From Clostridia bacterium (lineage in GTDB: Bacteria; Bacillota; Clostridia; Oscillospirales; CAG-272): 64,000 bases of DNA. Below are positions 20,429-56,172 of this stretch, in pieces. The notes beneath the pieces were generated by a model. That model had not been told where the DNA came from. It was given only the letters and a program-made list of their open reading frames with translations, and made no database searches. Both the position numbers and the translations under genes were made by a program. The stretch is from positions 22,187 to 86,186 of the forward strand of contig JAFUOQ010000010.1 of the NCBI GenBank assembly GCA_017472695.1, written 5' to 3'. Position 1 is the stretch's first letter. The number at the start of each line of letters is the position of its first letter.

Positions 20429-20449
20429 TTAATGAAAGGAGTTGTTTAT

Positions 20450-21496: not shown

Positions 21497-21515
21497 TATT
21501 ATTTAAAATCAATGC

Positions 21516-28778: not shown

Positions 28779-28790
28779 TTGGAGCAAAAA

Positions 28791-29009
28791 ATGTCAGTAT
28801 TTGAGAAAGCAAAATGGATATGGATAGATGATAAAAGCGAGATAAATACATATGGTGAGTTTTATTCTAGCCTTTTTGCCGATTCAAGCGCAAAAATAAA
28901 TATAAGCTGTGATGGAGATTACACGCTTTTTGTGAACGGAAAATATGTTGGTAGCCTTTGCCATGGATGGAGTGCGATACCAATATATTACTATTGGGAG
29001 CTACTTTAG
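28791..29009 (+). pseudogene. N-terminal fragment of a glycoside-hydrolase-like protein (rhamnosidase-type N-terminal sandwich), truncated
   Basis: MSVFEKAKWIWIDD..NTYGEFYSSLF..AKINISCDGDYTLFVNGKYVG, then unrelated residues and a stop after about 72 aa. No continuation in any frame. Confidence 0.4.
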
Positions 29010-29089
29010 GGCTGTTGCAATGGCACAGACCAAAAACAGACAATTTTTAAATAGCAATTAACCTATTTAAGCTTATAACCGTTAATGTT

Positions 29090-29127
29090 GAGAACTTGCA
29101 ATATAACTGCAAGCTCTCTTCTTTTTT
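29090..29127 (+). terminator. Terminator-like hairpin
   Basis: GAGAACTTGCA-ATATAA-CTGCAAGCTCTC followed by TTCTTTTTT. Confidence 0.55.
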
Positions 29128-29176
29128 GTGTCTGTTTTTGAAAATTAAGAACTACGAGCATAGCGAAGGCGAAGGA

Positions 29177-29210
29177 AAATACGAGAACATTTCGGTGTTT
29201 CTCGTATTTT
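29177..29210 (+). terminator. Terminator-like hairpin
   Basis: AAAATACGAGAACA-TTTCGG-TGTTTCTCGTATTTTT. Confidence 0.6.
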
Positions 29211-29221
29211 TCTTTGCAAAA

Positions 29222-29297
29222 TTCACAAAGATTTCACAAATTCGGAACGAGGATGGAACAGTTGTGGAACAGATGCGGAACATGGTGTGAGTATAAT
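29222..29297 (+). promoter_or_regulatory. Six 11-bp-phased direct repeats ending 4 nt before a TATAAT -10; activator-type promoter of the FAS operon
   Basis: Six repeat units, each 11 bp:
- TTCACAAAGAT at 29222
- TTCACAAATTC at 29233
- GGAACGAGGAT at 29244
- GGAACAGTTGT at 29255
- GGAACAGATGC at 29266
- GGAACATGGTG at 29277
These are followed by TGAG and then TATAAT at 29292-29297. There is no TTGACA-like -35. Confidence 0.6.
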
Positions 29298-29360
29298 AAA
29301 TGCCAACGGACAACGTGCGAGTTAAGCACGCTGTTCAAAAATTTTTGGAGGTATTTTACC

Positions 29361-29585
29361 ATGTATTTTAACGCTATTGCAAAAGTTATCGCAGAAAGAA
29401 CCGATTGCGACATTTCCACCATCAAGCCCGAGAGCACATTCGTAGAGCTTGGTATCGATTCTCTTGATACCGTAGAGCTTCTGATGAGTCTTGAGGACGA
29501 GATCGGCGTGGAGATTGAGCTTGACAAGAAGGTTGAGACGGTTGGCGATCTTGACAAATTTATTCAAAGCAAGGTTCAGGGCTAA
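29361..29585 (+). CDS. acpP: Acyl carrier protein
   Basis: 74 aa from the ATG at 29361, with GGAGG at 29347-29351. Phosphopantetheine site LGIDSLDTVEL. Confidence 0.85.
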   Translation: MYFNAIAKVIAERTDCDISTIKPESTFVELGIDSLDTVELLMSLEDEIGVEIELDKKVETVGDLDKFIQSKVQG

Positions 29586-29588
29586 AAG

Positions 29589-30533
29589 ATGATTAAATCG
29601 AAGATCTGTGAGATACTTGGCATCAAGTATCCCGTATTTCAAGGCGGTATGGCTTGGATCGCGGATGGAAGATTGGCGGCGGCTGTATCTGAGGGCGGTG
29701 GTCTTGGCATTATTGCCGCAGGAAACGCGCCTGCCTCCTATGTTCGTGAGCAGATAGGAATCGCACGCTCGCTGACTTCGAAGCCCATCGGGGTCAACAT
29801 TATGCTTATGAGCCCGTATGCAGATGAAGTTGCTGCTGTTGTCGTAGAAGAAAATGTGGAAGTTGTTACAACAGGTGCGGGCAATCCGTCCAAGTATATG
29901 AAGGAGTGGAAAGCTGCCGATATCAAGGTCATTCCCGTTGTAGCATCTGTGGCTATGGCGAAGATCATGACAAGGTCAGGCGCGACCGCACTGATTGCGG
30001 AAGGCGGCGAGAGTGGTGGACACGTGGGTGAGCTTACCACAATGGTGCTCGTTCCGCAGGTGTGCGATGCTACCGAGCTTCCCGTAATTGCCGCAGGCGG
30101 TATTGCCGATGGACGTGGTGTTGCGGCGGCATTGATGCTTGGAGCCGAGGGAGTTCAACTTGGAACACGCTTCCTTTCCGCTTGTGAGTGTTCTATACAC
30201 CCCACTTATAAGGAAAAGATACTGAAGGCGACAGATCTTTGCACGATGGTGACGGGTAAAAGGCTTGGTCACCCCGTTCGTAGCCTGCGCACCAAATTCG
30301 CGCAAAATTATTCCAAAGCCGAATACAGCGGTATGCCCGACGAGGAGCTTGAAAATCTTGCGGTCGGCGCACTCCGTCTTGCCGTCAAGGAGGGTGACCT
30401 TGAAAAGGGCTGCTTCCTTGCAGGTCAGATCGCGGCAATGGTCAAAAAAGAACAGAGCGCCGCAGAGATCGTAAAAGAGATTATGGATGAGGCGGAGCCT
30501 ATCCTGAAAGGAGCATCAAGATGGGTAGAATAG
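29589..30533 (+). CDS. fabK: Enoyl-ACP reductase II (FMN-dependent, FabK/NMO family)
   Basis: 314 aa. YPVFQGGMAWI, GGESGGHVG and AAGGIADGRG motifs. Confidence 0.85.
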   Translation: MIKSKICEILGIKYPVFQGGMAWIADGRLAAAVSEGGGLGIIAAGNAPASYVREQIGIARSLTSKPIGVNIMLMSPYADEVAAVVVEENVEVVTTGAGNPSKYMKEWKAADIKVIPVVASVAMAKIMTRSGATALIAEGGESGGHVGELTTMVLVPQVCDATELPVIAAGGIADGRGVAAALMLGAEGVQLGTRFLSACECSIHPTYKEKILKATDLCTMVTGKRLGHPVRSLRTKFAQNYSKAEYSGMPDEELENLAVGALRLAVKEGDLEKGCFLAGQIAAMVKKEQSAAEIVKEIMDEAEPILKGASRWVE

Positions 30534-31429
30534 CATTTGTTTTTTCCGGGCAGGGAGACCAATTTTCCGGAATGGGAAAGGAACTGTATGAAAATTACAT
30601 ATGGGCAAAAAAGATATTTGATGCCTGTGATGAGATTCGTCCCAACACCTCCCGTCAATGCTTTGAGGGAACAGAAGAAGAATTAAAGGAAACCAAAAAT
30701 ACACAGCCCTGCCTTTTTGCTATGGAGCTTGCCGCCGCAAACGTTCTTGTGGAACGCGGTATCAAGCCATATGCGGTCGCGGGATTTTCTCTCGGAGAGG
30801 TTGTGGCTTGTGCGTTTTCAGGCATTGTTGATTGGGAAACGGGCTTTCGTTTGGTATGCCGTCGCGGTGAGTTGATGCAGGAAGCGGCAGAAAAGCAGGA
30901 TACGTCAATGGTGGCGGTAGTAAAGCTCGACAATGAAATAGTAAAGGGGATTTGCGCAAAATATTCTGCCGTATATCCCGTAAACTTCAATTGTCCGGGA
31001 CAGGTTTCCGTTGCAGGTCTTACCTCGCAGATGGCGGATTTTTCCGCAGACGTAAAGGCTGCGGGCGGCAGAGCGCTTCCCATCAAGGTTAAGGGTGGTT
31101 TTCATTCTCCTTTCATGAATGAAGCAGCTGCACTATTTGCAAAGGAGCTTTCAAAGGTTCAGTTCAATCAAGGAAATGCCGTTCTCTATTCCAACAAAAC
31201 TGCAAAGCCTTATACAAATGGAACTGTCGATCTTCTTTCGTCACAGATATGCAATCCTGTTTTGTGGGAGGAGCTGATACGAAATATGATCGCAGAAGGA
31301 ATTGATACCTTTATCGAAATCGGCCCCGGTAAAACGCTGACCAATATGATCAAAAAAATTAGTAACGAGGTGAACGTATATTCGGTCTTCGATCTTGATA
31401 CGGTGCTTTCGGAGGTGGCTGAATGTTGA
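30521..31429 (+). CDS. fabD: Malonyl-CoA:ACP transacylase
   Basis: 302 aa. FVFSGQGDQ and GFSLGE active-site serine motifs. Confidence 0.9.
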   Translation: MGRIAFVFSGQGDQFSGMGKELYENYIWAKKIFDACDEIRPNTSRQCFEGTEEELKETKNTQPCLFAMELAAANVLVERGIKPYAVAGFSLGEVVACAFSGIVDWETGFRLVCRRGELMQEAAEKQDTSMVAVVKLDNEIVKGICAKYSAVYPVNFNCPGQVSVAGLTSQMADFSADVKAAGGRALPIKVKGGFHSPFMNEAAALFAKELSKVQFNQGNAVLYSNKTAKPYTNGTVDLLSSQICNPVLWEELIRNMIAEGIDTFIEIGPGKTLTNMIKKISNEVNVYSVFDLDTVLSEVAEC

Positions 31430-32151
31430 ACGGAAAAGTAGCCATCATCACGGGCGGCTCACGTGGGATCGGTGCGGCGATTACATATAAGCTTGCCTCT
31501 CTCGGTGCTGACGTTGCTGTGATTTACGCAGGCAACAAGGACGCAGCTGAAGCGGTATGTGACAGATGCAAAGCAGAATTCGGAGTTAAAGCCGAAGCCT
31601 ATCTTTGTGACGTGTCCGATTTTGGTGCCGTAAAGGAAACCGTTGTTAGGATAAAAGCAGACTTTGGCGCGGCTCATATCCTTGTAAACAATGCGGGTGT
31701 AACGCGTGACGGGCTTGCGGCGATGATGAGGGAAGAGGATTTTGACAAGGTCGTTGATACAAACCTAAAGGGCGCATTCAATATGATCCGCCACGTCACC
31801 CCCTTGCTTTTAAGAAGTAAAGAGGGTTGTATTATCAATATCAGCTCGGTTTCGGGTTTGATGGGAAATGCAGGTCAAAGCAATTATTCTGCTTCAAAGG
31901 CGGGATTGATCGGACTGACAAAGTCGGTCGCCAAGGAGTATGCTGCCAAGGGAATTCGCTGTAATGCGATTGCTCCCGGTTTTATTAAGACCGATATGAC
32001 CGAAGCACACGCTGATAATCCGCTTCTATCCATGATTCCTCTTGGAAAAATGGGGGACGTTGAGGATGTTGCTGAAGCGGTTGCCTATTTGATAGGCGCA
32101 AAATACGTAACAGGCGAGGTCCTCCGAGTTGACGGCGGGATCGCCATGTAA
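31423..32151 (+). CDS. fabG: 3-oxoacyl-ACP reductase (SDR)
   Basis: 242 aa. TGGSRGIG, NNAG and YSASKAG motifs. Confidence 0.9.
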   Translation: MLNGKVAIITGGSRGIGAAITYKLASLGADVAVIYAGNKDAAEAVCDRCKAEFGVKAEAYLCDVSDFGAVKETVVRIKADFGAAHILVNNAGVTRDGLAAMMREEDFDKVVDTNLKGAFNMIRHVTPLLLRSKEGCIINISSVSGLMGNAGQSNYSASKAGLIGLTKSVAKEYAAKGIRCNAIAPGFIKTDMTEAHADNPLLSMIPLGKMGDVEDVAEAVAYLIGAKYVTGEVLRVDGGIAM

Positions 32152-32162
32152 GGAGAAAAAAG

Positions 32163-33410
32163 ATGAATGAGAATACAAAGCGTGTCGTAGTAACGGGAAT
32201 CGGCGCGATCACACCTGTTGGAAAGACGACAGCCGAGACTTGGGGAGCGCTCAAGTCTGGCAAAAACGGAATCGCGCCGATCACCTTATTTGATACGACC
32301 GATTATAAAGCAAAGCTTGGGGCACAGGTCAAGGACTTTAACGCTCTTGATTATATGGAAAAATCCGAAACGCTCCGTACCGACCGTTACACACAGTTTG
32401 CGCTCATCGCCGCACAGCAGGCGGTGGAGGAAAGCGGTATTGTGGGCAATGTCACCCCCGAGCGCTTCGGCGTTTATTTGGGGGTCGGTATTGGCGGTAT
32501 CGGTACGTTAGAGACCGAGCATACGAAGCTGATGGAAAAAGGTCCTCGCAGAGTTTCCTCTCTGCTTGTGCCTATGATGATCCCAAATATGGCGGCAGGC
32601 ATGATCGCCATAAAATATGATTGCAGAGGTTCTGCTATGCCTGCGGTTACGGCTTGTGCATCGGGCTCTAACGCCATTGGTGAAGCTATGCGACTGATAC
32701 GCCACGGATACGCCGATGCTGTGATAACAGGTGGAGCAGAAGCGGCAATCTGTCCCTCTGCCGTTGCGGGCTTTGTTAATATGCACGCGCTTTCCACAGC
32801 CGAGGATGCAAATGCGGCATCCTTGCCCTTTGACAGCAGACGCACAGGCTTTGTGATCGGTGAGGGCGCAGTTTGCCTTGTGCTTGAGGAATACGAGCAC
32901 GCAAAGGCGCGCGGTGCAAAGATCTATGCCGAGGTATGCGGATATGGCTCTACCTGCGACGCAAATCACATCACAGCCCCACATCCCGAGGCGCGCGGAG
33001 GAGCACAGGCAATGATGGATGCGATGCGTGAGGCGAGGTACACCGAAAAGGATACCGTGTATATTAACGCTCACGGTACGGGAACGCCGATGAACGATAA
33101 GCTGGAGACTATGGCAATCAAAAAAGCACTTGGTGAGGAGGCGGCAAGACGCGCCTTTGTCAGCTCCACAAAGTCTATGACGGGTCATATGCTTGGAGCA
33201 GCGGGCGCTATTGAAGCCCTTGCATGTATTTTTGCGTTGAACGAAGATATCATTCCCCCTACCATCAATCTTAACGAGCAGGATGCAGAATGCGATTTGA
33301 ACTATGTTCCCGAAGTTGCCATTCAGCAAAAGATCGACCTAGCTCTTTCCAATTCTCTTGGGTTTGGCGGACACAATGCGTGTCTTGCATTCAGAAAGGT
33401 GTCAACATGA
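32163..33410 (+). CDS. fabF: 3-oxoacyl-ACP synthase II
   Basis: 415 aa. Active-site ACASGS, HGTGTP and GFGGHNA motifs. Confidence 0.9.
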
Positions 33411-33841
33411 ACGAGAAGGATATTCGCAAATATGCACAGCTTATGAAGGAGCTTGATCTGACTGGTCTTGAGATCACGGAAGACAATAAGGTGGTTCGCT
33501 TGGAACGTACACAGCCTATAACCACCCGCGAGCCGATGGTCATTCAAACTGCCGTTGCCCCTGTTTCGGCGGAGCAATCGCAGGTAAGTGAAGCAAACGA
33601 CGGCTGTATCAGAATTACTTCCTCCATTGTTGGCGTGTTTTACGCTGCCCCTGCCGAAAATGCAGAGCCCTTTGTAAAGATTGGTGACCGTGTGGAAAAG
33701 GGACAGACACTTTGTATTATTGAGGCAATGAAGCTGATGAACGAGATTGCAGCAGAGGAAAGCGGCATCATTGAAAAAATTGGAGTAACAAACGGTCAGG
33801 TCGTTGAATTCGGAACCGAGCTGTTTCGTATCAGGAGATGA
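33407..33841 (+). CDS. accB: Biotin carboxyl carrier protein
   Basis: ATGA overlap with the fabF stop; the listed start 33290 is rejected. Biotinylation motif EAMKLMNEI. Confidence 0.85.
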
Positions 33842-33844
33842 GCT

Positions 33845-34261
33845 ATGATAAAAGAAGAAATCAAAAATATGTTGCCTCACAGAGAGCCAATGCTTCTGCT
33901 CGATGACGTGGAAAACAGGGACGGCTGTGCCATTGGGCATTATAAGGTCAAGGGAGATGAATTTTTTTTACAGGGACATTTTCCAAATAACCCAATCGTC
34001 CCCGGTGTGATCCTTTGTGAGATTTTGGCACAATCGGCTTGCATTTTGATGGTTGACGTGATGACGGACGGTAAGCTTCCCGTATATACGGGACTCAATA
34101 ATGTAAAGTTTCGTCATTCCGTCCGCCCCGGAGATCTGATCGAAACCAAATGCTCAATCAAAAGGGCGAAGCATCCCTTCTATTTTGCAGAAGGAACAGT
34201 AAATGTGGATGGCAAGGTCTGTGTCAGCGCAGAATTTTCCTTTGCCATCGTTGGAGAATGA
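33845..34261 (+). CDS. fabZ: 3-hydroxyacyl-ACP dehydratase
   Basis: 138 aa. LPHREPMLLLD and GHFPNNPIVPGV motifs. Confidence 0.9.
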   Translation: MIKEEIKNMLPHREPMLLLDDVENRDGCAIGHYKVKGDEFFLQGHFPNNPIVPGVILCEILAQSACILMVDVMTDGKLPVYTGLNNVKFRHSVRPGDLIETKCSIKRAKHPFYFAEGTVNVDGKVCVSAEFSFAIVGE

Positions 34262-34264
34262 TCT

Positions 34265-35572
34265 ATGTTTTCAAAGATATTGATTGCCAATCGCGGCGAG
34301 ATTGCCGTTAGAATTATCAGAGCCTGCAAGGAAATGGGTGTTGCTACCGTAGCGGTATATTCGGAAGCCGATAAAAACGCACTTCACGTGGCACTTGCCG
34401 ACGAAAGCTACTGCATTGGACGCGCGGAAGCCTCGGAAAGCTACCTGAATGAAAATCAGATCATCAGCACAGCTCTTCTTGCAGGAGCGCAGGCGATCCA
34501 TCCCGGGTATGGCTTTTTGTCAGAAAATGCTCATTTTGCAAGAGCGTGTCGCAAGAACGGCATCGTATTTATAGGTCCCGATCCCGAGGATATGGAACGT
34601 TTGAGTGATAAAGCCATATTAAAAGAGTTGATGAGCAATGCAGGGCTTACCGTGATTCCGGGTACCAAAGCCGTAGCATCGCTCACAGAAGCAAAAAAAG
34701 CAGCCGAAAGGATCGGATATCCCGTGATGATGAAGGCGTGCGCGGGTGGTGGCGGACGAGGAATTCGTCTGATCAGACAAGAAAATGAAATCGACGATGC
34801 ATATATGCAAGCAACAGCCGAGGCGTTAAGCGCCTTCGGTGACGGCTCGGTATATCTCGAAAAATATATTTTCCCTGCAAAACATATTGAATTGCAGATC
34901 CTCGCTGATGAGGCAGGAAACGTAGTATGCCTTGGCGAAAGAGATTGCTCCTTACAGAGAAGAAATCAAAAATTGATCGAGGAAACACCTTCCCCTGCCG
35001 TATCGGAGAATCAGCGTAATAAAATTATGGAAACAGCCATCAAGGCGGTGAAAAAGATCGGTTATGTTGGCGCCGGAACGCTTGAATTTCTCTATGATCA
35101 GCAAGGTAATTTCTGGTTTATGGAAATGAATGTGCGTCTTCAGGTGGAGCATTGTGTGACAGAGATGCTGACAGGCTTTGATCTTGTTAAATGGCAAATT
35201 CGTATTGCCGCAGGCATTCCGCTGAACTTCACGCAGAGCGACGTCAGGATCGTAGGGGCGGCGATCGAGTGCAGAATCAATGCGTCAAGCTGCGGAACGC
35301 TGAAAATGCTTCACGTTTCCGGCGGTCCCGCGGTACGTTTTGATACTTGCCTTGTGGAAGGAACTGTTGTTTCGCCTTATTATGATTCCTTGCTTGGAAA
35401 GCTGATTGTGTATGCGAAAACAAGGGAGGAGACCTTGCGCAAGCTCAGAGCGGCTCTTTGCGAGCTTGTGATCGACGGCATCCCCACAAACGTGGAGGAG
35501 CAGCTTCGTATCGTTTCCGATAAGCGCTTTGCATCGGGCGATTATGATTTAACTTTTATGGGTAGTAGGTGA
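34265..35572 (+). CDS. accC: Biotin carboxylase
   Basis: 435 aa. ATP-grasp fold (KILIANRGEIAVRIIRA, GGGGRGIR, EMNVRLQVEH). Confidence 0.9.
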   Translation: MFSKILIANRGEIAVRIIRACKEMGVATVAVYSEADKNALHVALADESYCIGRAEASESYLNENQIISTALLAGAQAIHPGYGFLSENAHFARACRKNGIVFIGPDPEDMERLSDKAILKELMSNAGLTVIPGTKAVASLTEAKKAAERIGYPVMMKACAGGGGRGIRLIRQENEIDDAYMQATAEALSAFGDGSVYLEKYIFPAKHIELQILADEAGNVVCLGERDCSLQRRNQKLIEETPSPAVSENQRNKIMETAIKAVKKIGYVGAGTLEFLYDQQGNFWFMEMNVRLQVEHCVTEMLTGFDLVKWQIRIAAGIPLNFTQSDVRIVGAAIECRINASSCGTLKMLHVSGGPAVRFDTCLVEGTVVSPYYDSLLGKLIVYAKTREETLRKLRAALCELVIDGIPTNVEEQLRIVSDKRFASGDYDLTFMGSR

Positions 35573-35576
35573 TACG

Positions 35577-36437
35577 ATGGCATTACTGAATTTCTTAAAA
35601 CCTAAAAACAATCTGGAGGAGGGCGGTCGCACGTCCGCTCCTGTTCATAGTGATGTGGGCGAGCCCGAAAAAAACTGTCCCAATTGTCACAAGGATATTC
35701 CCATGAGCCGTCTGTGGGCAAATCAGTTGGTCTGTTCTTGCGGATATCATTTCAGAATGAAAGCGCGTCAGCGTATCAGCATGATAAGCGACAAAAACAG
35801 CTTTCGGGAATTGTTTGTGAGCGTGAGGTCATGTAATCCTCTCGGATTTCCCGGCTACCGTGAAAAGCTTGAAACCTCAAAGACCGCAAGCGAGGAAGAA
35901 GAAGCTGTTGTTTGCGGTACCGCCTCTATCGGTAAACAACAGTGCTGTATTTTTGCTATGGAGTCCACATTTATGATGGGCAGTATGGGAAGCGCGGTCG
36001 GAGAGAAGATCACATCACTTTTTGAATACGCTACGCAACATCGCTTGCCTGTCATCGGCTTTACCGTATCGGGAGGTGCCAGAATGCAGGAAGGACTGCT
36101 GTCTCTTATGCAAATGGCAAAAACAAGCGCTGCTGTGAAGCAACATAGCGACGTGGGGCTTTTGTATATCGCCGTCCTGACAGATCCTACGACAGGAGGC
36201 GTAACGGCAAGCTTTGCAATGGAAGCCGATATCATTTTGGCAGAGCCGAGTGCTACGGTTGGATTCGCAGGCAAGCGTGTGATTGAACAAACAACAAAGC
36301 AGAGCTTACCGAAGGAATTTCAATCTGCCGAATTTGTGTTGGAGCACGGATTTATTGACAAAATTGCTGTCAGAAAGGATCAGAGAAAGCTTCTGGCAGA
36401 GCTTCTTAAAATGCATAACGGAGGAGAAAGCGTATGA
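35577..36437 (+). CDS. accD: Acetyl-CoA carboxylase carboxyltransferase beta subunit
   Basis: 286 aa. N-terminal Zn ribbon CPNC..CSCG, then a carboxyltransferase domain. Confidence 0.85.
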   Translation: MALLNFLKPKNNLEEGGRTSAPVHSDVGEPEKNCPNCHKDIPMSRLWANQLVCSCGYHFRMKARQRISMISDKNSFRELFVSVRSCNPLGFPGYREKLETSKTASEEEEAVVCGTASIGKQQCCIFAMESTFMMGSMGSAVGEKITSLFEYATQHRLPVIGFTVSGGARMQEGLLSLMQMAKTSAAVKQHSDVGLLYIAVLTDPTTGGVTASFAMEADIILAEPSATVGFAGKRVIEQTTKQSLPKEFQSAEFVLEHGFIDKIAVRKDQRKLLAELLKMHNGGESV

Positions 36438-37228
36438 GTGAGATGCCCTATGACAGAGTAAAGCTTGCAAGAGACAACAAGCGTCCCACGGGACAGGACT
36501 ATATCAAAAACATTTTCAAGAATTTTATCGAGCTTCACGGAGACAGACGATATGCAGATGATAAAGCCGTTATTGCCGGTATCGCGCGTCTCGACGGTTT
36601 ACCCGTAACGGTCATTGCTATTGAAAAAGGACATTCCTCCAAAGAGCGTGTGGAGCGTAATTTCGGCGCACCTCACCCCGAGGGTTATCGAAAAGCATTG
36701 CGTTTGATGAAGCAAGCCGAGAAATTCGGCAGACCGATTATTTGTTTTGTGGACACGTCGGGTGCATATTGCGGCATTGGTGCGGAGGAGCGCGGGCAAG
36801 GTCAGGCGATTGCCGAGAATTTGATGGAAATGAGCACGCTTTGCGTTCCCGTTATCTCGATTTTGATCGGAGAAGGAGGGAGCGGAGGTGCGTTGGCACT
36901 TGCCGTGGCAGACCGCGTTTGGATGCTTGAGAATGCGGTGTATTCCGTGATCTCTCCCGAGGGATGCGCAAGTATTTTATGGAAGGATTCCGGCAAGGCA
37001 GACATTGCGGCGGCAAGTCTAAAGCTGACTGCCGAGGATGCCAAAAGTCTCGGCGTGATTGAGCGAATCCTTTCTGAGAATGAAATGGGTCAAAAGGAAT
37101 ATTACGAGCGTATTCGCACATTACTCGGCGAGGAAATTCAAGCACTTACGAAGGATCCCGATCTTTTGCAAAAACGATACGACCGTTTCCGCAGGATCGG
37201 AATGACCGATACAGAGCAGATGCTTTAA
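36434..37228 (+). CDS. accA: Acetyl-CoA carboxylase carboxyltransferase alpha subunit
   Basis: 264 aa. Overlaps the accD stop. FVDTSGAYCG and GEGGSGGALA motifs. Confidence 0.85.
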   Translation: MSEMPYDRVKLARDNKRPTGQDYIKNIFKNFIELHGDRRYADDKAVIAGIARLDGLPVTVIAIEKGHSSKERVERNFGAPHPEGYRKALRLMKQAEKFGRPIICFVDTSGAYCGIGAEERGQGQAIAENLMEMSTLCVPVISILIGEGGSGGALALAVADRVWMLENAVYSVISPEGCASILWKDSGKADIAAASLKLTAEDAKSLGVIERILSENEMGQKEYYERIRTLLGEEIQALTKDPDLLQKRYDRFRRIGMTDTEQML

Positions 37229-37242
37229 CAAAGGAAGAATCT

Positions 37243-38880
37243 ATGAGTATATATAAAAAATATTGCCGTGAGTCTTTTGACAAGGACGGCAAGCTGATCA
37301 ATTTTGAAATAGAATATCCGAAGGACTTCAATTTTGGTTACGATGTGGTGGACGTATATGCGGAAACCGAACCGAATAAAAAGGCTCTCGTTTGGTGTAA
37401 CACTAAAAACGAGGAGCACATTTTTACCTTTGCGGATATCAAAAAATACAGTAACCGAATTGCGAATACGCTTGCAGATGCGGGTGTAACAAAAGGCAGC
37501 CGTGTGCTGGTGATATTAAAGCGGCACTACGAGTATTGGTTTGTTGCGGTTGCCTTGCACAAGCTTGGTGCTGTGATGATTCCTGCCACGCATATGTTGA
37601 CGGTTAAGGACTTGGAATACCGCATAAATGTCTCACACGCCGATGCGATCATTTGCACACCGCAGGATGATGTACCAAGCAATATCAAAGCTGCTTTAGA
37701 ATCGACAGAGACAGTTCCCATGCTTTGGTGCGTGCAGGAGAGCGTGGAGGGCTTTTGCAATCTGACTGAAGAAATGAAGCTTGCAAACGAAGAATTGGAG
37801 CGTATCCCAACGCTCGCCACCGATCATATGCTGATGTACTTTACCTCAGGCACAACGGGAAATCCCAAAGGCGTGATTCATGATTTTACTTATCCCTTGG
37901 CACATATTGTAACAGCAAAATATTGGCAACAAGCCGAGGAGGATGGACTGCATTTTACGGTTGCCGAAACGGGATGGGCTAAGGCTTCTTGGGGAAAGAT
38001 CTACGGTCAGTGGCTTGTCGGCTCCGCCGTAATGGTATATGACTTTGATAATTTTGAACCGAAACAGTTGACGAATATTATCAACCGTTACGGAGTGACC
38101 TCGTTTTGCGCGCCGCCAACCGTTTACCGATATCTTGTCCGCAAGGGCGTTCCTAAAATGCCGAAGCTTCGCCATGCATCGACTGCGGGAGAAAAGCTTG
38201 CTCCAGATGTGTTTCAAACATTTACCGAGCAAACGGGACTTGTGCTTTGCGAGGGTTACGGACAAACTGAAACGACCTTGCTGATGGGAAATATGAAGAA
38301 CTATACACCCGTCGAGGGCTCTATGGGGATCGTATCTCCGATGTATCACATCGAGCTTCAGGATAAAAAAGGAAACGCAGTACCCCAAGGAGAAATCGGA
38401 GAGGTTGTCATCGTTCCGCCTGAAAACGGAAAACAGATCGGCGTTTTCTGCGGTTATCTCGATAACGAAAAGCAATACGAGCACGTATGGCGCGGAGGCG
38501 TGTATCATACGGGAGACGCGGCTTGGCAGGATGAAAACGGACTGTATTGGTTTCACGGTCGCTTTGACGATATTATCAAAACGGGAGGCTTTCGTGTTGG
38601 TCCCTATGAGATCGAAAACGTGCTGATGGAACATCCTGCAGTCACCGAATGCAGTGTGATTGGCGTCCCCGATGCTTTGCGCGGTCAAGCAATCAAAGCC
38701 GTTGTGATCCTTCAAAATGGCTTTGTTCCAACCAAAGAGCTTGAAAAGGATATCAAGGATTTCTGTAACGCAAAGCTCGCGGAATATAAATGGATCCGTA
38801 TCGTTGAATTTGTCACAGAAATGCCCAAAACCATCATCAGCGGTAAGATCAAGAAAACAGAGCTTCGCAAAAGAGCTTGA
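37243..38880 (+). CDS. AMP-forming acyl-CoA synthetase (medium-chain ACSM/MACS-like)
   Basis: 545 aa, starting 14 nt after the accA stop. AMP-binding motifs YFTSGTTGNPKG, GYGQTET, YHTGD and ISGKIKK. Confidence 0.8.
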   Translation: MSIYKKYCRESFDKDGKLINFEIEYPKDFNFGYDVVDVYAETEPNKKALVWCNTKNEEHIFTFADIKKYSNRIANTLADAGVTKGSRVLVILKRHYEYWFVAVALHKLGAVMIPATHMLTVKDLEYRINVSHADAIICTPQDDVPSNIKAALESTETVPMLWCVQESVEGFCNLTEEMKLANEELERIPTLATDHMLMYFTSGTTGNPKGVIHDFTYPLAHIVTAKYWQQAEEDGLHFTVAETGWAKASWGKIYGQWLVGSAVMVYDFDNFEPKQLTNIINRYGVTSFCAPPTVYRYLVRKGVPKMPKLRHASTAGEKLAPDVFQTFTEQTGLVLCEGYGQTETTLLMGNMKNYTPVEGSMGIVSPMYHIELQDKKGNAVPQGEIGEVVIVPPENGKQIGVFCGYLDNEKQYEHVWRGGVYHTGDAAWQDENGLYWFHGRFDDIIKTGGFRVGPYEIENVLMEHPAVTECSVIGVPDALRGQAIKAVVILQNGFVPTKELEKDIKDFCNAKLAEYKWIRIVEFVTEMPKTIISGKIKKTELRKRA

Positions 38881-38883
38881 AGA

Positions 38884-39230
38884 TGCTATGAGCGGCGACA
38901 ATGCACCTTCCAAAATTCTTCGTGGGGTGCTTTGTGCTGTTGAAGAAACAGATGTTCACTTCACCTTGCTGGAAATAAGAGTGAAATTGCAAGAATCTCT
39001 AAAGAAATAGGGTTAAGCTTGGAAAGCATTGAGATCATTCATGCGTTATAGAAATGGAGGATGATCCAATCTCTGCTTTTGATCGAAAGAAGGACTCGTC
39101 CATGATGACGGGGCTTAAATTGCTTGCTGACGGACAGGGCGATGCTTCAAGCGGTTCAATATGTACAAAGCGGTGTCTCAAACAAAATCAGGCACGTAGA
39201 GTAGGCAACGGTTACATCCGAACATACACG
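38884..39230 (+). pseudogene. plsX: Remnant of plsX (phosphate:acyl-ACP acyltransferase), frameshifted and truncated
   Basis: DAMSGDNAPSKILRGVLCAVEETDVHFTLL..KLQESLKK (frame of listed ORF 38717..39010). Then, in another frame, MEDDPISAFDRKKDSSMMTGLKLLADGQGDA (listed ORF 39054..39326). These match the PlsX N-terminal pattern DAMGGDNAP...KKDSSM...G.ADA. The remaining two thirds or so of the gene are absent. Confidence 0.55.
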
Positions 39231-39252
39231 GTATTCATTCGGCTCGAATCGA

Positions 39253-39281
39253 TTGACGAAGGTGAAAATATATGGTATAAT
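39253..39281 (+). promoter_or_regulatory. Sigma-A-type promoter of the PAS-wHTH regulator gene
   Basis: TTGACG (39253-39258), 17-nt spacer, TATAAT (39276-39281). Confidence 0.6.
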
Positions 39282-39347
39282 ATATTGTCAATGATGTATT
39301 TCTATGGAGAGCGAGATTGGATATGAGAGGTATATAGAGGAGATAGA

Positions 39348-41345
39348 ATGAACTTTCAATTAGAAAACAATACGGAAATACTGGATCAGTATATCAGCGG
39401 TTTCCGTCAATATATATTCGGAGAGTCGGTATTGCCGACCTTCATCAGTAGCAATTTTTGTAATATGGTGGGATATACCAAGGAAGAACTGGAGAGTAGC
39501 ACTGCTGATCTTTATGCGGAATTGGTGTATCAGGCAGATAGACATACATACGAGGATTTTTTGAACGGGATTGCACAGAACCGAGCATCTGACACTACGG
39601 AGTACAGACTCGTAAAAAAGGACGGTTCTGTTGTATTCGTCAGAGATACTATGACGGTGAAAGAATCCGAAGATCACAGCTTGGTCGGTTATTCCGTACT
39701 AACTGACATTACGGCAGTAAAAGCCGAAAATGAAAACCTTCGTTTTTTAAATGATACCGTTCCTTGCGGTATGCTCAAATACACCTGTGAGAAAAATCCC
39801 AAAATCACGTTTGTGAATAGGCAAATGCTTGAAATGATGCGCTTTCCCGATTCAAAGGACGGAGAGATCGATTACTTGGAGCTCTATAAGGACAATATCT
39901 ATTTGATGATTCCCATGGAGGAGCGGCGTAAGTTCTCACATTTTTTGAATCAGGTCTATACAAGCGGTTCACCAATTGCCGGAGAACTATCTGTACTCCG
40001 TTGCGACGGAACAAAAGCGCATTTGTACGGTTGGGTGACAAAGGTCACGAATACCGACGGTACAGAGGAATTTCAAAGCGTATGTATGGATGTGACCAAG
40101 CGGTATTATACCAAGAGAGCAACTGCTACCGAGCGGTATCTGAAAGCTCTTTCGGATGTATATGAAAAGATATTTGAGTACGATTTTGCAAACGGAACGG
40201 TAAAATACGTTTCGGGCGGTTCTGATACGTTCAGCAGAATTCGAAATCTGCCGATGCACATGGAGGAGGCGACCGAACAATGGATTGAGCATAGCGTATA
40301 CTCCGATGACCGCACTCTCATGCATGAATTCTTCTCAAACGTCTTTATGCAAAACACATCAAGCGGAATCCGCCCGCCGCAGATACAATACAGGGTAATA
40401 AAGAACGGCAAAATTCAGTATTATGCAGGTATCTTTTTGAAAATCGATTCCGGTGTTTCCTTGTTCTGCTGTCGAAAGTTACAGAACGATGGCGAGTCGG
40501 AGGCGTTGCGCAACGAAAACATTTCCTTGAAGAACAGAAATGAGAATATACAGGAAATGATCATGCGATATACAGACGGTCTCGCCGCATTTGAGATTAC
40601 CGATGACTGCGTTACTCCTTTGTATGCAAGTGATAATGTTTGCGAATTTTTTGGCTTTACAAAGGAAGAGTGGCTGCCGCTGATGAAGCAAAGCACCACG
40701 ATCAGAGAATTCGTTTCAAGAAGCGCGGTTGATTACGAAAAGTTCTCTGAGCTTCTGCGAACAGGAGAAGCTGAATTTACCTATTACGACATCGATGCAG
40801 ATACTGAAAAGCGTATTAAGGCGATCTGCTCACAGAAGCAGGCAGACATAACATCCCCTCGTTATGTTATGCTTTACAAAATGGATTCTTCGGAGCAGAA
40901 AAACGCAAATGTAGAGCAACCGAAGATCTATATCCGTACTTTTGGATATTTTGATATTTTTGTAAATGACAAGCCAATTGCTTTCCGCAATAAAAAAGCA
41001 AAGGAGCTATTGGCTTTGCTTGTTGACCGTCGTGGAGGATATGTGACGAGCGAGCAAGCCATTGGATATTTGTGGGAAAACGACTCAGCCAACACGGTAA
41101 CCTTGGCAAGATACCGTAAGGAGGCACTCCGCCTCAAAAACACTTTGGAGGAATACGGTATCGGGCATATTATAGAATCGGTGGACGGAAAGAGACGCAT
41201 CATTCCCGAACACATTGAATGTGATCTTTATAATTACCTTTCGGGTAAGGAGGAATTTACGGGACTTTTCAAAGGAAGCTATCTTACCGATTATGCTTGG
41301 GGGGAAATGACACTTGGTGAGCTTATGAATGATGCTATGAATTGA
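39348..41345 (+). CDS. One-component regulator: multiple PAS-like sensor domains + C-terminal SARP/OmpR-type winged-helix DNA-binding domain
   Basis: 665 aa. PAS-like blocks (e.g. FCNMVGYTKEELES..EYRLVKKDGSVVFVRD; MLEMMRFPDS..VLRCDGTKAHLYG). The C-terminus IYIRTFGYFDIFVNDKPIAFRNKKAKELLALLVDRRGGYVTSEQAIGYLW..CDLYNYL matches the SARP/BTAD N-terminal wHTH pattern. No receiver domain. Confidence 0.65.
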   Translation: MNFQLENNTEILDQYISGFRQYIFGESVLPTFISSNFCNMVGYTKEELESSTADLYAELVYQADRHTYEDFLNGIAQNRASDTTEYRLVKKDGSVVFVRDTMTVKESEDHSLVGYSVLTDITAVKAENENLRFLNDTVPCGMLKYTCEKNPKITFVNRQMLEMMRFPDSKDGEIDYLELYKDNIYLMIPMEERRKFSHFLNQVYTSGSPIAGELSVLRCDGTKAHLYGWVTKVTNTDGTEEFQSVCMDVTKRYYTKRATATERYLKALSDVYEKIFEYDFANGTVKYVSGGSDTFSRIRNLPMHMEEATEQWIEHSVYSDDRTLMHEFFSNVFMQNTSSGIRPPQIQYRVIKNGKIQYYAGIFLKIDSGVSLFCCRKLQNDGESEALRNENISLKNRNENIQEMIMRYTDGLAAFEITDDCVTPLYASDNVCEFFGFTKEEWLPLMKQSTTIREFVSRSAVDYEKFSELLRTGEAEFTYYDIDADTEKRIKAICSQKQADITSPRYVMLYKMDSSEQKNANVEQPKIYIRTFGYFDIFVNDKPIAFRNKKAKELLALLVDRRGGYVTSEQAIGYLWENDSANTVTLARYRKEALRLKNTLEEYGIGHIIESVDGKRRIIPEHIECDLYNYLSGKEEFTGLFKGSYLTDYAWGEMTLGELMNDAMN

Positions 41346-41353
41346 GAAAAAAT

Positions 41354-41791
41354 ATGGAAACAAGAACATACGATTATATTCGAAAAGTAAACTATTATGA
41401 AACCGATAAAATGGGGATCACACACCACTCCAACTATGTTCGTTGGATGGAAGAGGCTCGCACTGCGTTCCTTAATCATTTCGGTTGTGGGTATGCCAAA
41501 TTTGAAGAATACGGTGTTATATCCCCTGTTCTGTCCGTTAATTGTGAGTATAAGCACACAACCACATTTGAAGATGAGATTATCATTCACGTTGCTGTAG
41601 AGAAATACACAGGGGTCAAGCTGACATTCAGATATATTATGGAAAATTTTAAAACGGGTTCAACAGTTATGCTTGGTAAAAGCGAGCATTGCTTTCTTGA
41701 TGAAAAGCATATTCCCGTTATTGTGAGAAAGAGATTCCCAAAATTTGATGCAATACTCAAAGGCTTGGTTGCTAAAATTGACGAAAACTAA
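41354..41791 (+). CDS. Acyl-CoA thioesterase, 4HBT/YbgC family (hot-dog fold)
   Basis: ATG at 41354. VNYYETDKMGITHHSNYVRWMEEAR motif. Confidence 0.75.
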   Translation: METRTYDYIRKVNYYETDKMGITHHSNYVRWMEEARTAFLNHFGCGYAKFEEYGVISPVLSVNCEYKHTTTFEDEIIIHVAVEKYTGVKLTFRYIMENFKTGSTVMLGKSEHCFLDEKHIPVIVRKRFPKFDAILKGLVAKIDEN

Positions 41792-41804
41792 GAAGCGGTA
41801 TAGT

Positions 41805-41850
41805 AAAAAACAAAGAGGGTTCGTGCACTTACGAATCCTCTTTGTTTTAT
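41805..41850. terminator. Bidirectional terminator (thioesterase / MATE convergent pair)
   Basis: AAAAAA-CAAAGAGGGTTCGT-GCACTT-ACGAATCCTCTTTG-TTTTATTTT. Confidence 0.8.
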
Positions 41851-41864
41851 TTTATGAATTCACC

Positions 41865-43280
41865 TTACTGAACCGCCTTCTCTTGCTTGGCGTGGTCGAG
41901 CTGTCTATATGTTCTTACAATCAAAATAGCAGATATCACCGCCGTGAGAATATCCGATACGGGCATCGAGTAAAGCACACCGTCAAGACCGAAGAACAGA
42001 GGAAGGATCAACGCAAAACCCACTCCAAACACGATCTCACGCACCATAGATAGCATTGTGGATTCCACCGCCTTACCCATAGCCTGCAAGAAAATGAAGG
42101 TCGCCTTGTTCACACAGGCAAAGATCATCATACAGAGATAAATGCGGAATGCTTTAATTGCAAAATCTGTGTAATATACGCTCTCGTTTGACGCACCGAA
42201 GATTTGGATCAGCAGGTTCGGGAAGAACTCCACGATGACAAGTGCTACAGCACCAACGATTGCCTCAGCAATAATGAGCTTTGAAAAGAGCTTCTTTACT
42301 CGGTCAAACATCTTTGCTCCCATATTGAATCCAACTATTGGAATACAGCCTGCCGCCATACCGATGACGATAGAAATAACGATCTGGAAGAACTTCATGA
42401 CAATGCCGACCACCGCCATAGGAATCTGCGCAAATTGCTCTTGTCCAAAGATGGCATCCATTGCACCGTACTTGCGGATCATATTGTTGATTGCCGCCAT
42501 TGCAGCTACAAGAGAGATTTGAGCAAGAAAGCTACACAGACCAAGCGAAAGCGTTTTGCCAACGATCTTGCCTTTGAGTTTAAAATCGAGCTTTGTGGGC
42601 TTGATGATCTTGGCACGGAGCAGATACCACACTGCCAAAACCGCCGTTGCGATCTGCCCGATAACGGTAGCAACTGCCGCACCCATCATCCCCCATTTGC
42701 ATCCGAAAATAAAGATAGGGTCGAGGATAATATTGATTACTGCACCCGTAAGCGTGGAAATCATAGCAAATTTAGGATTTCCATCCGCGCGGATAATGGG
42801 ATTCATTGCCTGACCGAACATATAAAACGGAATACCAAGCGTAATCCAAAAGAAATATTCCTTAGAGAGCGCAAAAGTCTCGGCGTTGACCTTGCCGCCG
42901 AAAGCAGTAAGGATCGGATCGGCAAAGATCAGATAGATAACCGTAAGTACGATACTTGAAATTACACAGAGAAGAACCGAGTTGCCCACGCTCCTTGTGG
43001 CATTTTCGGGCTTCTTTTCTCCAAGCGAGATGCTAACAAACGCACAGCAGCCGTCACCAATCATAACGGCAATACCGAGAGCGATGACAGTTAAAGGAAA
43101 CACAACGGTGTTGGCGGCATTTCCGTATGAGCCGAGATAGTCGGCGTTTGCAATAAATATCTGGTCAACGATGTTATATAAAGCACCGACCAAAAGTGAG
43201 ATGATACAGGGCACTGCGTACTTGCCCATGAGCTTGCCAACGTTCTCCGTGGCAAGATAGCTTTGATTTTCTTTTTCCAT
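41865..43280 (-). CDS. MATE-family efflux transporter
   Basis: 471 aa with about 12 TM helices. MATE-like N-terminus (GKLMGKYAVPCIISLLVGALYNIVDQIFI). Confidence 0.8.
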   Translation of the reverse strand: MEKENQSYLATENVGKLMGKYAVPCIISLLVGALYNIVDQIFIANADYLGSYGNAANTVVFPLTVIALGIAVMIGDGCCAFVSISLGEKKPENATRSVGNSVLLCVISSIVLTVIYLIFADPILTAFGGKVNAETFALSKEYFFWITLGIPFYMFGQAMNPIIRADGNPKFAMISTLTGAVINIILDPIFIFGCKWGMMGAAVATVIGQIATAVLAVWYLLRAKIIKPTKLDFKLKGKIVGKTLSLGLCSFLAQISLVAAMAAINNMIRKYGAMDAIFGQEQFAQIPMAVVGIVMKFFQIVISIVIGMAAGCIPIVGFNMGAKMFDRVKKLFSKLIIAEAIVGAVALVIVEFFPNLLIQIFGASNESVYYTDFAIKAFRIYLCMMIFACVNKATFIFLQAMGKAVESTMLSMVREIVFGVGFALILPLFFGLDGVLYSMPVSDILTAVISAILIVRTYRQLDHAKQEKAVQ

Positions 43281-43590
43281 TTCTAATACCTCCTATAAAG
43301 CAAAGAAAAGGCGTAAGTCCTTCAAGCTGGACTTACGCCTTTTGGCTACGCACTATTGATATTATACCACAAAATTTTAAAAATTGCAAGTGGATTTTTT
43401 GCCGAAAAATCCTCTGACGAAGCAGCCATCTTCGAATACACCTTCCGCATCGGAGTGCGTTTAACAGTCGAAGCACTTAACGAATAAGCCTTGGATGGCA
43501 AGTACTCCAAAATGCTTGCCATCCTATATTATTTCAAACTGATTTCACGTTCGCCACCTATAATACCTACGATAAAATGGAGGGCTGCTT

Positions 43591-43686
43591 ATGATAAAAT
43601 GCAATACTCAATTTTACATAGGCATACTTTCCCATTATGAAAACAAGCTCCGTGAAATGATGGAAGAAATCCGTAGATCCGCGTAA
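43591..43686 (+). CDS. Candidate 31-aa small ORF
   Basis: GGAGGG lies 7 nt upstream of the ATG, and TATAAT at about 43557 upstream. Sequence MIKCNTQFYIGILSHYENKLREMMEEIRRSA. No homology can be judged. Confidence 0.2.
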   Translation: MIKCNTQFYIGILSHYENKLREMMEEIRRSA

Positions 43687-43691
43687 GGAGT

Positions 43692-43736
43692 AAAAAAGCA
43701 AAAATACGGCATACCTCTTTCAAGATATGCCGTATT
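43692..43736 (-). terminator. Intrinsic terminator of the 43795..45501 gene
   Basis: AATACGGCATA-N12-TATGCCGTATT hairpin with a T-run on the minus strand (plus-strand AAAAAAGCAAAA at 43692-43703). Confidence 0.7.
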
Positions 43737-43794
43737 CTTGCAGAACTATCCTTTAGGGTAGACCCTAATGCAACAGTCTTTTTTAGTGATTTAA

Positions 43795-54538: not shown

Positions 54539-54712
54539 TAGGGGGGAGGCTTGCTCCTCCCGATTTTATGTCAGGTGTAAAATTGTACGTGTGACCATTG
54601 ATCACCATAAAAAAGAGACTCGGTAAGGCGGACTTCTCATAAGGATGTTTACCTGACACACGGTAGGGGCGAACTGCGTTCGCCCGCGTGAGACCACAGT
54701 TCCCCCTACGAA
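54539..54712. repeat. REP-like module cluster
   Basis: TAGGGGGGAGGCTTGCTCCTCCC at 54539 (module E type). AAAAAAGAGACTCGGTAAGG..CTTCTCATAAGGA at 54609, related to 56127-56170 on the opposite strand. GTAGGGGCGAACTGCGTTCGCCC at 54663 (module I). An inverted head GTTCCCCCTAC at 54699. Confidence 0.8.
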
Positions 54713-54734
54713 CAAGAAAAAATTGTTCCGCAGA

Positions 54735-54780
54735 AAACAAATAATTATCCCCGACAGACTTTAAAAAATCTGTCGGGGAT
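54735..54780 (-). terminator. Terminator of the GNAT gene
   Basis: ATCCCCGACAGA-N10-TCTGTCGGGGAT hairpin with T-rich flanks on both strands. Confidence 0.7.
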
Positions 54781-54790
54781 TATTATATTT

Positions 54791-55318: not shown

Positions 55319-55379
55319 ATATGCATCCTTCGAATAAGTTGTTTTATCGCCAGTTTCGCCTTTGTATTACAAAGGCATA

Positions 55380-56153: not shown

Positions 56154-56172
56154 AAACGAGTCTCTTTTTTTA

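Follow-up and report, generated by a model that had tools for sequence, protein, structure and literature searches.

Results

Gene content of the locus

The locus described here lies in a 64-kb stretch of contig JAFUOQ010000010.1 from a Clostridia bacterium (the window, in whose positions all coordinates are given). It carries an operon for type II fatty acid synthesis (FAS II), to which are joined an acyl-CoA synthetase gene and the gene of a regulator with PAS domains and a SARP-like winged helix. Genes were called from the open reading frame map together with Pfam and NCBIfam scans. The genes acpP-fabK-fabD-fabG-fabF-accB-fabZ-accC-accD-accA run contiguously and in one orientation from 29361 to 37228 on the forward strand (Table 1). 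An earlier note, made from the letters of the sequence, had given this order, and both model libraries recover it, with FabF and FabK above their equivalog cut-offs. The synthetase gene begins 14 nt past accA, as that note had it (accA ends at 37228, the synthetase starts at 37243), and is followed by a plsX pseudogene, the PAS regulator, a YbgC-type thioesterase and, on the opposite strand, a MATE transporter. An alternative TTG start of the thioesterase, at 41342, overlaps the regulator stop. The note was also correct that no gene of the fabT or fapR type is adjacent; the neighbours of the operon are ybaK, the PAS regulator and what remains of a glycosidase gene.

Table 1. Features of the inserted segment and its left edge (window coordinates)
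Feature	Position	Strand	Evidence
Rhamnosidase-like gene remnant: first ~57 codons (to 28948) joined to 3′ end and terminator (28950-29141)	28779..29141	+	blastn against L087/L088
Inserted segment, ~14.65 kb; right edge approximate (43.7-43.8 kb)	29142..43791	.	empty site in two sisters; codon scores
Core cassette common with L085, 90.7% nucleotide identity, broken only by the ~630-bp plsX deletion	29213..41786	+	blastn
A/T-rich upstream element, two TTCACAAA copies 11 bp apart	29222..29240	+	sequence; information content
Four GGAAC direct repeats in 11-bp phase (29244, 29255, 29266, 29277), proposed operator, over the -35 region	29244..29281	+	motif search, geometry
-10 hexamer TATAAT, 10 nt past the last GGAAC; no conserved -35 hexamer	29292..29297	+	alignment of 52 species
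Stem-loop in the acpP 5′ untranslated region	29308..29336	+	-13.8 kcal/mol, z -1.9
acpP, acyl carrier protein, 74 aa	29361..29585	+	PF00550; NCBIfam ACP models just under cut-offs
fabK, FMN enoyl-ACP reductase II	29589..30533	+	TIGR03151, 461.5 bits (cut-off 453.1)
fabD, malonyl-CoA:ACP transacylase	30521..31429	+	PF00698
fabG, 3-oxoacyl-ACP reductase	31423..32151	+	PF00106/PF13561
fabF, 3-oxoacyl-ACP synthase II, sole condensing enzyme of the cassette	32163..33410	+	TIGR03150, 574 bits (cut-off 494)
accB, biotin carboxyl carrier protein	33407..33841	+	PF00364
fabZ, 3-hydroxyacyl-ACP dehydratase	33845..34261	+	PF07977
accC, biotin carboxylase	34265..35572	+	PF02786/PF00289/PF02785
accD, carboxyltransferase beta	35577..36437	+	PF01039
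accA, carboxyltransferase alpha	36434..37228	+	PF03255
Short/medium-chain, probably branched-chain, acyl-CoA synthetase, MacS/MbcS/ACSM type, operon gene 11	37243..38880	+	3ETC, E 4e-166
plsX pseudogene, frameshifted, ~630 bp deleted	38882..39326	+	PlsX similarity, comparison with L085
PAS and SARP-like winged-helix regulator, 665 aa	39348..41345	+	Pfam, structure models, fold search
Hot-dog thioesterase, YbgC/FadM family	41354..41791	+	TIGR00051, 77.6 bits (cut-off 68.7); PDB relatives
Strong intrinsic terminator closing the cassette, 19-bp stem	41807..41848	+	terminator scan
MATE efflux transporter	41865..43280	-	PF01554, TIGR00797

An inserted segment with a close relative elsewhere

The flanking SHMT served as a marker of the host, and its homologs led to two sister species (locus labels L087 and L088) whose SHMT is 97-98% identical to that of the window; a metagenome scan with the flank protein orf350 had given one spurious 22-residue match and no empty site. 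Both sisters have the gene order of the window, with activase, orf350, orf131 and ybaK on one side and SHMT, Fur, SecG, RNase R, PPDK and GH94 on the other. Between ybaK and the orf568 homolog, they carry only an intact rhamnosidase-like gene of 634 or 647 aa (Bac_rhamnosid6H), and no FAS genes stand at this site in either. Host synteny in blastn runs up to 28948 and resumes at ~43792, and 28950-29141 is the 3′ end and terminator of the same glycosidase gene, which has also suffered an internal loss of ~1.7 kb. The truncated glycosidase that the earlier note saw at the left edge is hence real: intact in both sisters, it is reduced here to ~57 codons and the 3′ end. Of the two tandem terminators claimed for this edge, one is found by the terminator scan (29095-29113), and the other is visible in the sequence as a hairpin with a T-run at ~29176-29212, whose loop is too long for the scanner. 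Because the sisters have the same flanks, an intact glycosidase gene and no FAS genes at this place, we conclude that ~14.65 kb has been inserted, between two convergent host genes; the limits drawn before from the letters (29010-43790) are nearly exact (29142-43791). Direct repeats of 10 nt or more were not found at the edges of the insertion.

The inserted DNA is most closely related to L085 (GCA_965330785.1), with 90.7% nucleotide identity over 29213-39147 and 39139-41786 and no similarity outside 29213-41786, even at the protein level. The flanking genes of L085 are unrelated to those of the window and have 48-49% G+C (GC), near the cassette's own value, compared with 40% in the window flanks. 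The same left and right limits of the core cassette recur in L089, L091, L006 and L008. Synonymous divergence (dS) of the cassette from L085 is 0.22-0.49, as against 0.9-2.2 for ordinary host genes compared with the nearest sister. Horizontal acquisition of the segment at about 29142-43791 is strongly supported by these observations.

The earlier note had also proposed that the block differs in composition, and windowed GC, third-position GC (GC3) and codon analysis all bear this out. Bulk GC in 1-kb windows is 0.445-0.532 from 29 to 39 kb, and outside this range one of 54 windows (0.467) exceeds 0.461; GC3 is 0.44-0.54 in the block against 0.22-0.43 in the flanks (block GC1 0.56, GC2 0.41). 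The codon signature is a far sharper mark of the block than bulk GC: between block and flanks, the share of CCC is 0.46 against 0.04, of ACG 0.28 against 0.03, of CAG 0.58 against 0.18 and of GCG 0.27 against 0.09. CCC and GCG had been listed as enriched and are; GGC, also listed, is not (0.30 against 0.35). Codon scores per gene are 0.28-0.39 from fabK to the synthetase, 0.24 for the regulator and 0.34 for MATE, whereas most flanking genes score 0.02-0.18, and the edges in this score fall exactly at ybaK|fabK and MATE|orf568. The 75-codon acpP scores within the flank range, and the thioesterase gene (0.16), previously counted with the shifted block, does not share its signature. Expression-driven codon bias was ruled out as the cause of the shift, since the presumed highly expressed PFOR, PPDK and GH94 show the opposite signature, with the lowest scores of all (0.02-0.03). 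Codons of two-fold families ending in C are fewer in the block than in flanking housekeeping genes.

A standard cassette of gut and rumen Clostridia

When genomes, one for each species, were scanned with the synthetase, at least 594 relatives appeared, of which the best 80 were kept as loci; the locus set compared amounts to 1.44 Mb, and the window proteins were placed in it by tblastn. The synthetase gene follows directly behind the FAS genes in all 74 loci with enough upstream DNA, after accA in 70 and after fabZ in the four loci that have no acc genes. With the exception of these four, every relative with enough flank has the acpP-to-accA order of the window. The PAS regulator is present in the locus in 58 of 64 relatives and directly adjacent in 43; the thioesterase stands behind the regulator in 16 of 57. 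Synthetase and PAS regulator are accordingly part of the standard architecture of the cassette and not peculiar to this genome, and cassettes of this kind are standard in many gut and rumen Clostridia. The exact synthetase protein was found on nine contigs, and two independent assemblies are 100% identical in amino acid sequence for all tested cassette proteins. Complete genomes are among the carriers, for example JBMNEH010000001.1 (2.38 Mb). All 13 cassette genes are intact, with ratios of non-synonymous to synonymous divergence (dN/dS) of 0.02-0.14 that indicate purifying selection; plsX alone has decayed here.

The closest relatives of the cassette (L005, L007, L008, L085, L089 and L091) each lie in a different genomic context, and in all six plsX stands intact between synthetase and regulator. 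In the window, the similarity of 38882-39190 to the PlsX of relatives is spread over three reading frames and broken by an internal deletion (E 5e-17; Pfam PF02504 E 0.041), which confirms the plsX remnant suspected earlier. We suggest that plsX, the link from acyl-ACP to phospholipid synthesis, arrived with the cassette and then decayed; a copy belonging to the host presumably made it dispensable. Across 45 species, the GC of the FAS block tracks that of its flanks (r = 0.84) and lies above it in 38, by up to 0.156. This pattern is consistent with partly ameliorated, repeatedly exchanged cassettes together with compositional constraint of the proteins.

Two variants of the cassette were seen. 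L018, L022, L057 and L067 have a shorter form, acpP-fabK-(fabD)-fabG-fabF-fabZ-synthetase-PAS regulator, without acc genes; L067 belongs to Lachnospiraceae bacterium G41 (FNEU01), a cultured isolate and possible experimental model. L091 (12650-13006) and also L092 carry acpS (holo-ACP synthase, PF01648) between plsX and the PAS regulator, a version that looks even more self-contained.

The thioesterase is probably an optional accessory with an acyl-CoA housekeeping role. MATE lies inside the insertion and has its foreign codon usage, and is outside the conserved cassette. It is absent from L085, and a high-identity MATE next to the cassette occurs only in L013, beside acpP, where the gene is 74% identical in nucleotides (the closest in the locus set); MATE is a passenger.

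The acpP promoter

Upstream of acpP, a good -10 hexamer is preceded by four GGAAC repeats in place of a -35 box; transcription is predicted to start at ~29304. The strict pattern GGAAC-N6-GGAAC-N17-GGAAC, of which no copy is expected by chance in the window, precedes acpP in 51 of the 58 loci that could be tested and has no other occurrence on either strand of the 1.44 Mb of loci. A looser search of the rest of the window for GGAAC-N6-GGAAC gave one match with one mismatch, inside fabD, which is chance level. In the alignment of 52 species, the last repeat lies 10 nt from the -10 hexamer in 44 and 11 nt in eight, 37 have TATAAT as the hexamer, all have GGAACG as the first repeat, the third repeat is degenerate and the -35 position carries no information. 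In promoters of SARP regulators, direct repeats are spaced by 11 or 22 bp, and 8 bp separate the 3′ repeat from the -10 (PMC10936776). The array conforms to this rule if its unit is counted as a heptamer, which puts the last repeat 8-9 bp from the -10.

The TTCACAAA pair and the four GGAAC repeats form six elements at 11-bp spacing, exactly in phase. The A/T-rich element is partly kept in relatives (information up to 0.8 bit at -24 to -1 from the first repeat) and is a candidate UP element or accessory site; ATTCAYAAA/ATTTACAAA pairs of a similar kind were observed upstream of the array in several relatives. The stem-loop in the leader has four consensus pairs, each with a compensatory change in at least one sequence among 33 species, a weak signal; it may stabilise the mRNA or have a regulatory role.

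In L079 and L083, the only two loci that lack the array, the regulator slot is occupied by an orthologous TetR-family gene of 192 or 194 aa (PF00440; L079:10271-10849, L083:11677-12261), and the acpP promoter has a TTATCAwTGATAAC palindrome just past the -10 in place of the GGAAC repeats. Since the TetR loci carry the palindrome instead of the array, regulator and operator have been swapped together, and the pair looks like a second, repressor-type control system of the same cassette.

The PAS/SARP-like regulator

The regulator has more than 1000 homologs, none of them named. The AlphaFold model, built with 24 homologs (pLDDT 74.6), has four PAS-like domains at about residues 1-125, 140-250, 260-380 and 410-512, then a strand-helix domain (527-625) and a tail of ~40 helical residues (626-665) modelled at low confidence. 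The fold search with the full-length model was swamped by tandem-PAS proteins and returned nothing on the DNA-binding domain; the C-terminal domain was therefore modelled alone (pLDDT 75, pTM 0.68). In the PDB, Foldseek places it closest to the SARP AfsR, from structures of transcription initiation complexes (8k60, 8hvr), and to EmbR (2ff4), with E values of 8e-5 to 1.8e-4 and TM scores of 0.51-0.63 over 102-121 columns, followed by OmpR/PhoB effector domains (PhoB, ArlR, VanR) over about 85 columns. The SARP-like winged helix recognised in the earlier note is thereby upheld. The putative recognition helix, R588-N598, is invariant, as are the repeats. These features suggest to us that the PAS protein is dedicated to this operon, which it would activate through the GGAAC array. 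A near-consensus sigma-70 promoter (39253-39281, TTGACG-17-TATAAT with an extended TG) lies in the plsX pseudogene 67 nt before the regulator start, and regulator and thioesterase may be transcribed from it.

The acyl-CoA synthetase

The closest relative of known structure is MacsMa of Methanosarcina acetivorans (3ETC), which prefers 2-methylbutyrate and whose pocket residues have assigned roles (PMC10455477). Gly340 stands at the position of the tryptophan of the Acs acetate pocket, and Trp250 corresponds to Trp259 of MacsMa; both are invariant in 16 homologs. A role for operon gene 11 as acetyl-CoA synthetase was ruled out by Gly340. The CoA-pocket residues Tyr460, Arg490, Tyr525 and Tyr527 of MacsMa are F450, R480, Y515 and W517 here, two identical and two exchanged for other aromatic residues, and the retained Arg480 and Tyr515 are invariant. 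The best NCBIfam model is MbcS, the enzyme of Staphylococcus aureus that supplies FAS II with branched primers from exogenous 2-methylbutyrate and isobutyrate (PMC10026030). Activation of short, probably branched, environmental acids as chain primers is the most likely function by this comparison, and an isoacid-rich habitat suits such a role (PMC11171151).

Absence of fabH from the locus, another claim of the earlier note, holds for the window and the loci of 80 relatives, a statement about loci and not whole genomes. The query was Escherichia coli FabH, which matches PDB 1HN9 at E 1e-207 and also detects FabH of Gram-positive bacteria.

Discussion

Taken as a whole, the locus is likely to be a housekeeping FAS II whose cassette regulates itself and was acquired horizontally, with a probable primer-supplying synthetase and a proposed PAS/SARP-like activator. 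This corresponds to the first of two readings offered in the earlier note, a housekeeping pathway gained by transfer and controlled by an unusual regulator, and is strongly supported by the empty site, the foreign codons, the 90.7% identity to L085, and the SARP-like regulator with its promoter array. We propose that the cassette supplies membrane fatty acids through ACP, FabK, FabD, FabG, FabF and FabZ and the four acetyl-CoA carboxylase (ACC) subunits, and that the synthetase would activate isobutyrate, 2-methylbutyrate and similar acids from the environment to give primers for chain initiation. At the operon promoter, where four repeats one helical turn apart replace the -35 box, the winged helix of the regulator would bind head-to-tail and, in the manner of SARPs and PhoB, bring in RNA polymerase, and the PAS domains would sense a ligand that governs activation.

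Several observations weigh against this reading. The synthetase scores 405.6 bits with the MbcS model, for which the equivalog cut-off is 850, and two of the four CoA-pocket positions, both tyrosines in MacsMa, are replaced (Phe450, Trp517). No fabH was found by tblastn (E < 1e-8) in the 64-kb window or within 10 kb of the operon in the 80 species, and an acyl-CoA primer normally requires FabH. The winged helix is under the Pfam threshold (Trans_reg_C, E 0.011), and Pfam gives no match to a BTAD (PF03704) after the DNA-binding domain. What connects the regulator to the operator is adjacency, fold, geometry and co-variation, and L020, L038 and L042 have the array with no PAS regulator within 10 kb. 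No integrase, transposase, att repeats or other mobility genes flank or lie within 29142-43791. A native cassette of the host lineage was also sought; close homologs were all in other contexts and assemblies, and none could be linked to the sister assemblies.

Under vertical inheritance, the block would be housekeeping DNA whose composition reflects expression or amino acid content, and the sisters would have lost it. In 38 of 45 species, GC in the FAS block exceeds that of the flanks, and part of the bulk GC excess is on this account a general property of FAS genes. We nevertheless regard vertical inheritance as scarcely credible, and it is already contradicted: PFOR, PPDK and GH94, presumed to be highly expressed, score 0.02-0.03 against 0.28-0.39 for the block, the gene of which the window has a remnant is intact in the sisters, a cassette at 90.7% identity stands elsewhere between unrelated flanks, and cassette dS is far under the dS of host genes against the sisters. 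It is also very improbable that this is a cluster for a specialised product derived from fatty acid synthesis, the second reading of the earlier note, in which the synthetase provides the starter, the thioesterase releases the product, MATE exports it and a SARP-type regulator controls the whole. A SARP-like DNA-binding domain and the adjacency of thioesterase and MATE within the same insertion speak for such a cluster. However, MATE is not conserved, being absent from the closest cassette and next to the cassette at high identity only in L013; the thioesterase, present in 16 of 57 loci, is of the acyl-CoA type (YbgC/FadM); there is one condensing enzyme with a full ACC set and no tailoring genes; the dN/dS values (0.02-0.14) reflect housekeeping-like conservation; and some relatives add plsX and acpS, housekeeping genes for phospholipids and ACP.

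The two remaining alternatives concern parts of the mechanism. The GGAAC array could be the target of another OmpR/PhoB-type regulator encoded elsewhere, with the PAS protein acting otherwise or by protein contacts only. The three array loci that lack a PAS gene nearby would fit, and direct repeats of 11 bp in place of a -35 box also suit response regulators of the PhoB type. We think this improbable: array and PAS gene co-occur in nearly all 51 array loci (the three exceptions are those without a PAS gene within 10 kb), the two vanish together where a TetR gene takes the slot, and, because no further array sites exist in the 1.44 Mb, the regulator would be dedicated to the acpP promoter. In L038, a transposase-like ORF (12271-13125) directly follows the synthetase, which hints at rearrangement in this locus. 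The other alternative is priming without FabH, in which the synthetase loads short acids onto the ACP of the cassette, directly or via a transacylase, and FabF elongates them; fatty acid synthesis would then depend on short-chain acids from the environment. The absence of fabH within 10 kb in 80 species and in the window with a validated query, the place of the synthetase as an obligatory operon member (74/74) and the two substituted CoA-pocket tyrosines all point this way, and initiation independent of FabH is documented in other bacteria, by MadA (PMC8666670) and by FabB in Pseudomonas putida (PMC10869286), for which reason a FabH-free, synthetase-primed pathway stays a live alternative. Even so, we judge it unlikely. 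Among characterised proteins, those closest to the synthetase are without exception CoA ligases (MacsMa, ACSM2A, 4-hydroxybutyrate-CoA ligase and MbcS), a Vibrio acyl-ACP synthetase matches only at E 6e-28, and the CoA-pocket residues Arg480 and Tyr515 are invariant. In some Firmicutes, for example Bacillus, fabH is unlinked from the fab cluster, and its absence from the locus is for this reason weak evidence. Rather unlikely too, though the most far-reaching possibility, is that a large group of gut and rumen Clostridia does without FabH altogether, that the synthetase is their sole source of primers (possibly onto ACP), that the PAS/SARP-like activator switches the pathway by a lipid or precursor signal, and that the complete module (ACP, in some with ACP synthase, FAS, ACC, primer enzyme, PlsX and regulator) moves between species as a plug-in unit. 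The literature searched held nothing relevant on Clostridia without fabH.

Returning to the acquired housekeeping cassette, we compared it with known systems. The streptococcal/clostridial FAS II cluster (fabT-fabH-acpP-fabK-fabD-fabG-fabF-accB-fabZ-accC-accD-accA) has the same order from acpP to accA, FabK and a single FabF. The present locus differs in that fabH and a MarR-type FabT or a FapR (DeoR) are missing, an acyl-CoA synthetase is appended, and the promoter appears to be of an activator type where theirs has a repressor operator. In most Clostridia, FabK is paired with FabT and, in C. difficile, with FapR (PMC10543012). The synthetase belongs to the same subfamily as MbcS and MacsMa, with glycine at the Acs tryptophan position and the alternative pocket tryptophan kept. 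Whereas mbcS lies elsewhere in the chromosome and is confined to some staphylococci (PMC13584741), the gene here has a fixed place in the FAS II operon; its product scores under the equivalog cut-off, has predicted substrates and has no FabH partner at the locus.

The SARPs (AfsR, EmbR, ActII-ORF4 and DnrI) provide the best structural match of the DNA-binding domain, and their promoters share with the candidate target the 11/22-bp direct repeats, a heptamer at a like distance from the -10 and the lack of a -35 box. In SARPs, however, the DNA-binding domain is N-terminal, whereas here it is C-terminal, preceded by four PAS-like domains and followed by the ~40-residue helical tail in place of BTAD; the host here is a Firmicute, and primary lipid synthesis takes the place of an antibiotic cluster as the proposed target. 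Positive control of fatty acid genes by a ligand-sensing regulator has parallels in FasR, the actinobacterial TetR-type activator of fas/FAS II, and in FadR at fabA/fabB, with unrelated protein families, operators and sensor domains. The literature searched contained nothing relevant on a PAS/SARP regulator of fatty acid synthesis and gave only FabT and FapR for Clostridia; the combination of operon synthetase, PAS/SARP-like activator and GGAAC array appears to be new to it. As an insertion, the segment resembles genomic islands and xenologous operons in being discrete, atypical in composition, absent from relatives and sited next to a damaged host gene. It differs from islands in lacking an integrase, a tRNA target, direct repeats and conjugation genes, and in carrying an operon of an essential pathway together with that operon's regulator.

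FAS II is an antibiotic target, and bypass of its inhibition by host lipids is thought to hinge on whether the regulator is FabT or FapR (PMC10543012). Control by an activator would add a third type to these two, one that hundreds of uncultured gut Clostridia apparently use as a rule, and would alter predictions for the effect of FabK or FabF inhibitors on the commensal flora. The operon synthetase could explain how fibre degraders of rumen and gut use branched short-chain acids for lipids, and the promoter architecture of SARPs would extend to Firmicutes and to primary metabolism. As a case of transfer, the cassette is unusually clean: an entire essential-pathway operon has moved between species with its own regulator and promoter.

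Other features of the window

Outside the insertion, a low-GC trio at 9167-11530 (GC 0.33, GC3 0.26-0.29) encodes a D12 adenine methyltransferase, a PD-(D/E)XK nuclease-like protein and an N6/N4 methyltransferase, and is probably a restriction-modification island. GC is also low (0.31-0.33) at 17900-21500, which holds a subtilase (18458-20428) and an unannotated 354-aa neighbour. The reading frame at 22117-26379 encodes a 1420-aa fusion of two BcrAD/BadFG ATPase modules and DUF2229, of the CoA-enzyme activase type, that is kept in the sisters. Next to the right edge of the insertion, on the reverse strand (43795-45501), a 568-aa protein with no Pfam or NCBIfam match has an N-terminal hydrophobic segment and an acidic region of VAEDVAVEE-type repeats; its codon score (0.03) is like those of PFOR and PPDK, and it is kept in both sisters. 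Further to the right, ~1.6 kb (54625-56269) is missing from the sister L088 at the syntenic position and looks like a second small insertion, and the GNAT acetyltransferase (54791-55318) and DUF559 endonuclease-like gene (55517-55894) in it have foreign codon scores of 0.24 and 0.31.

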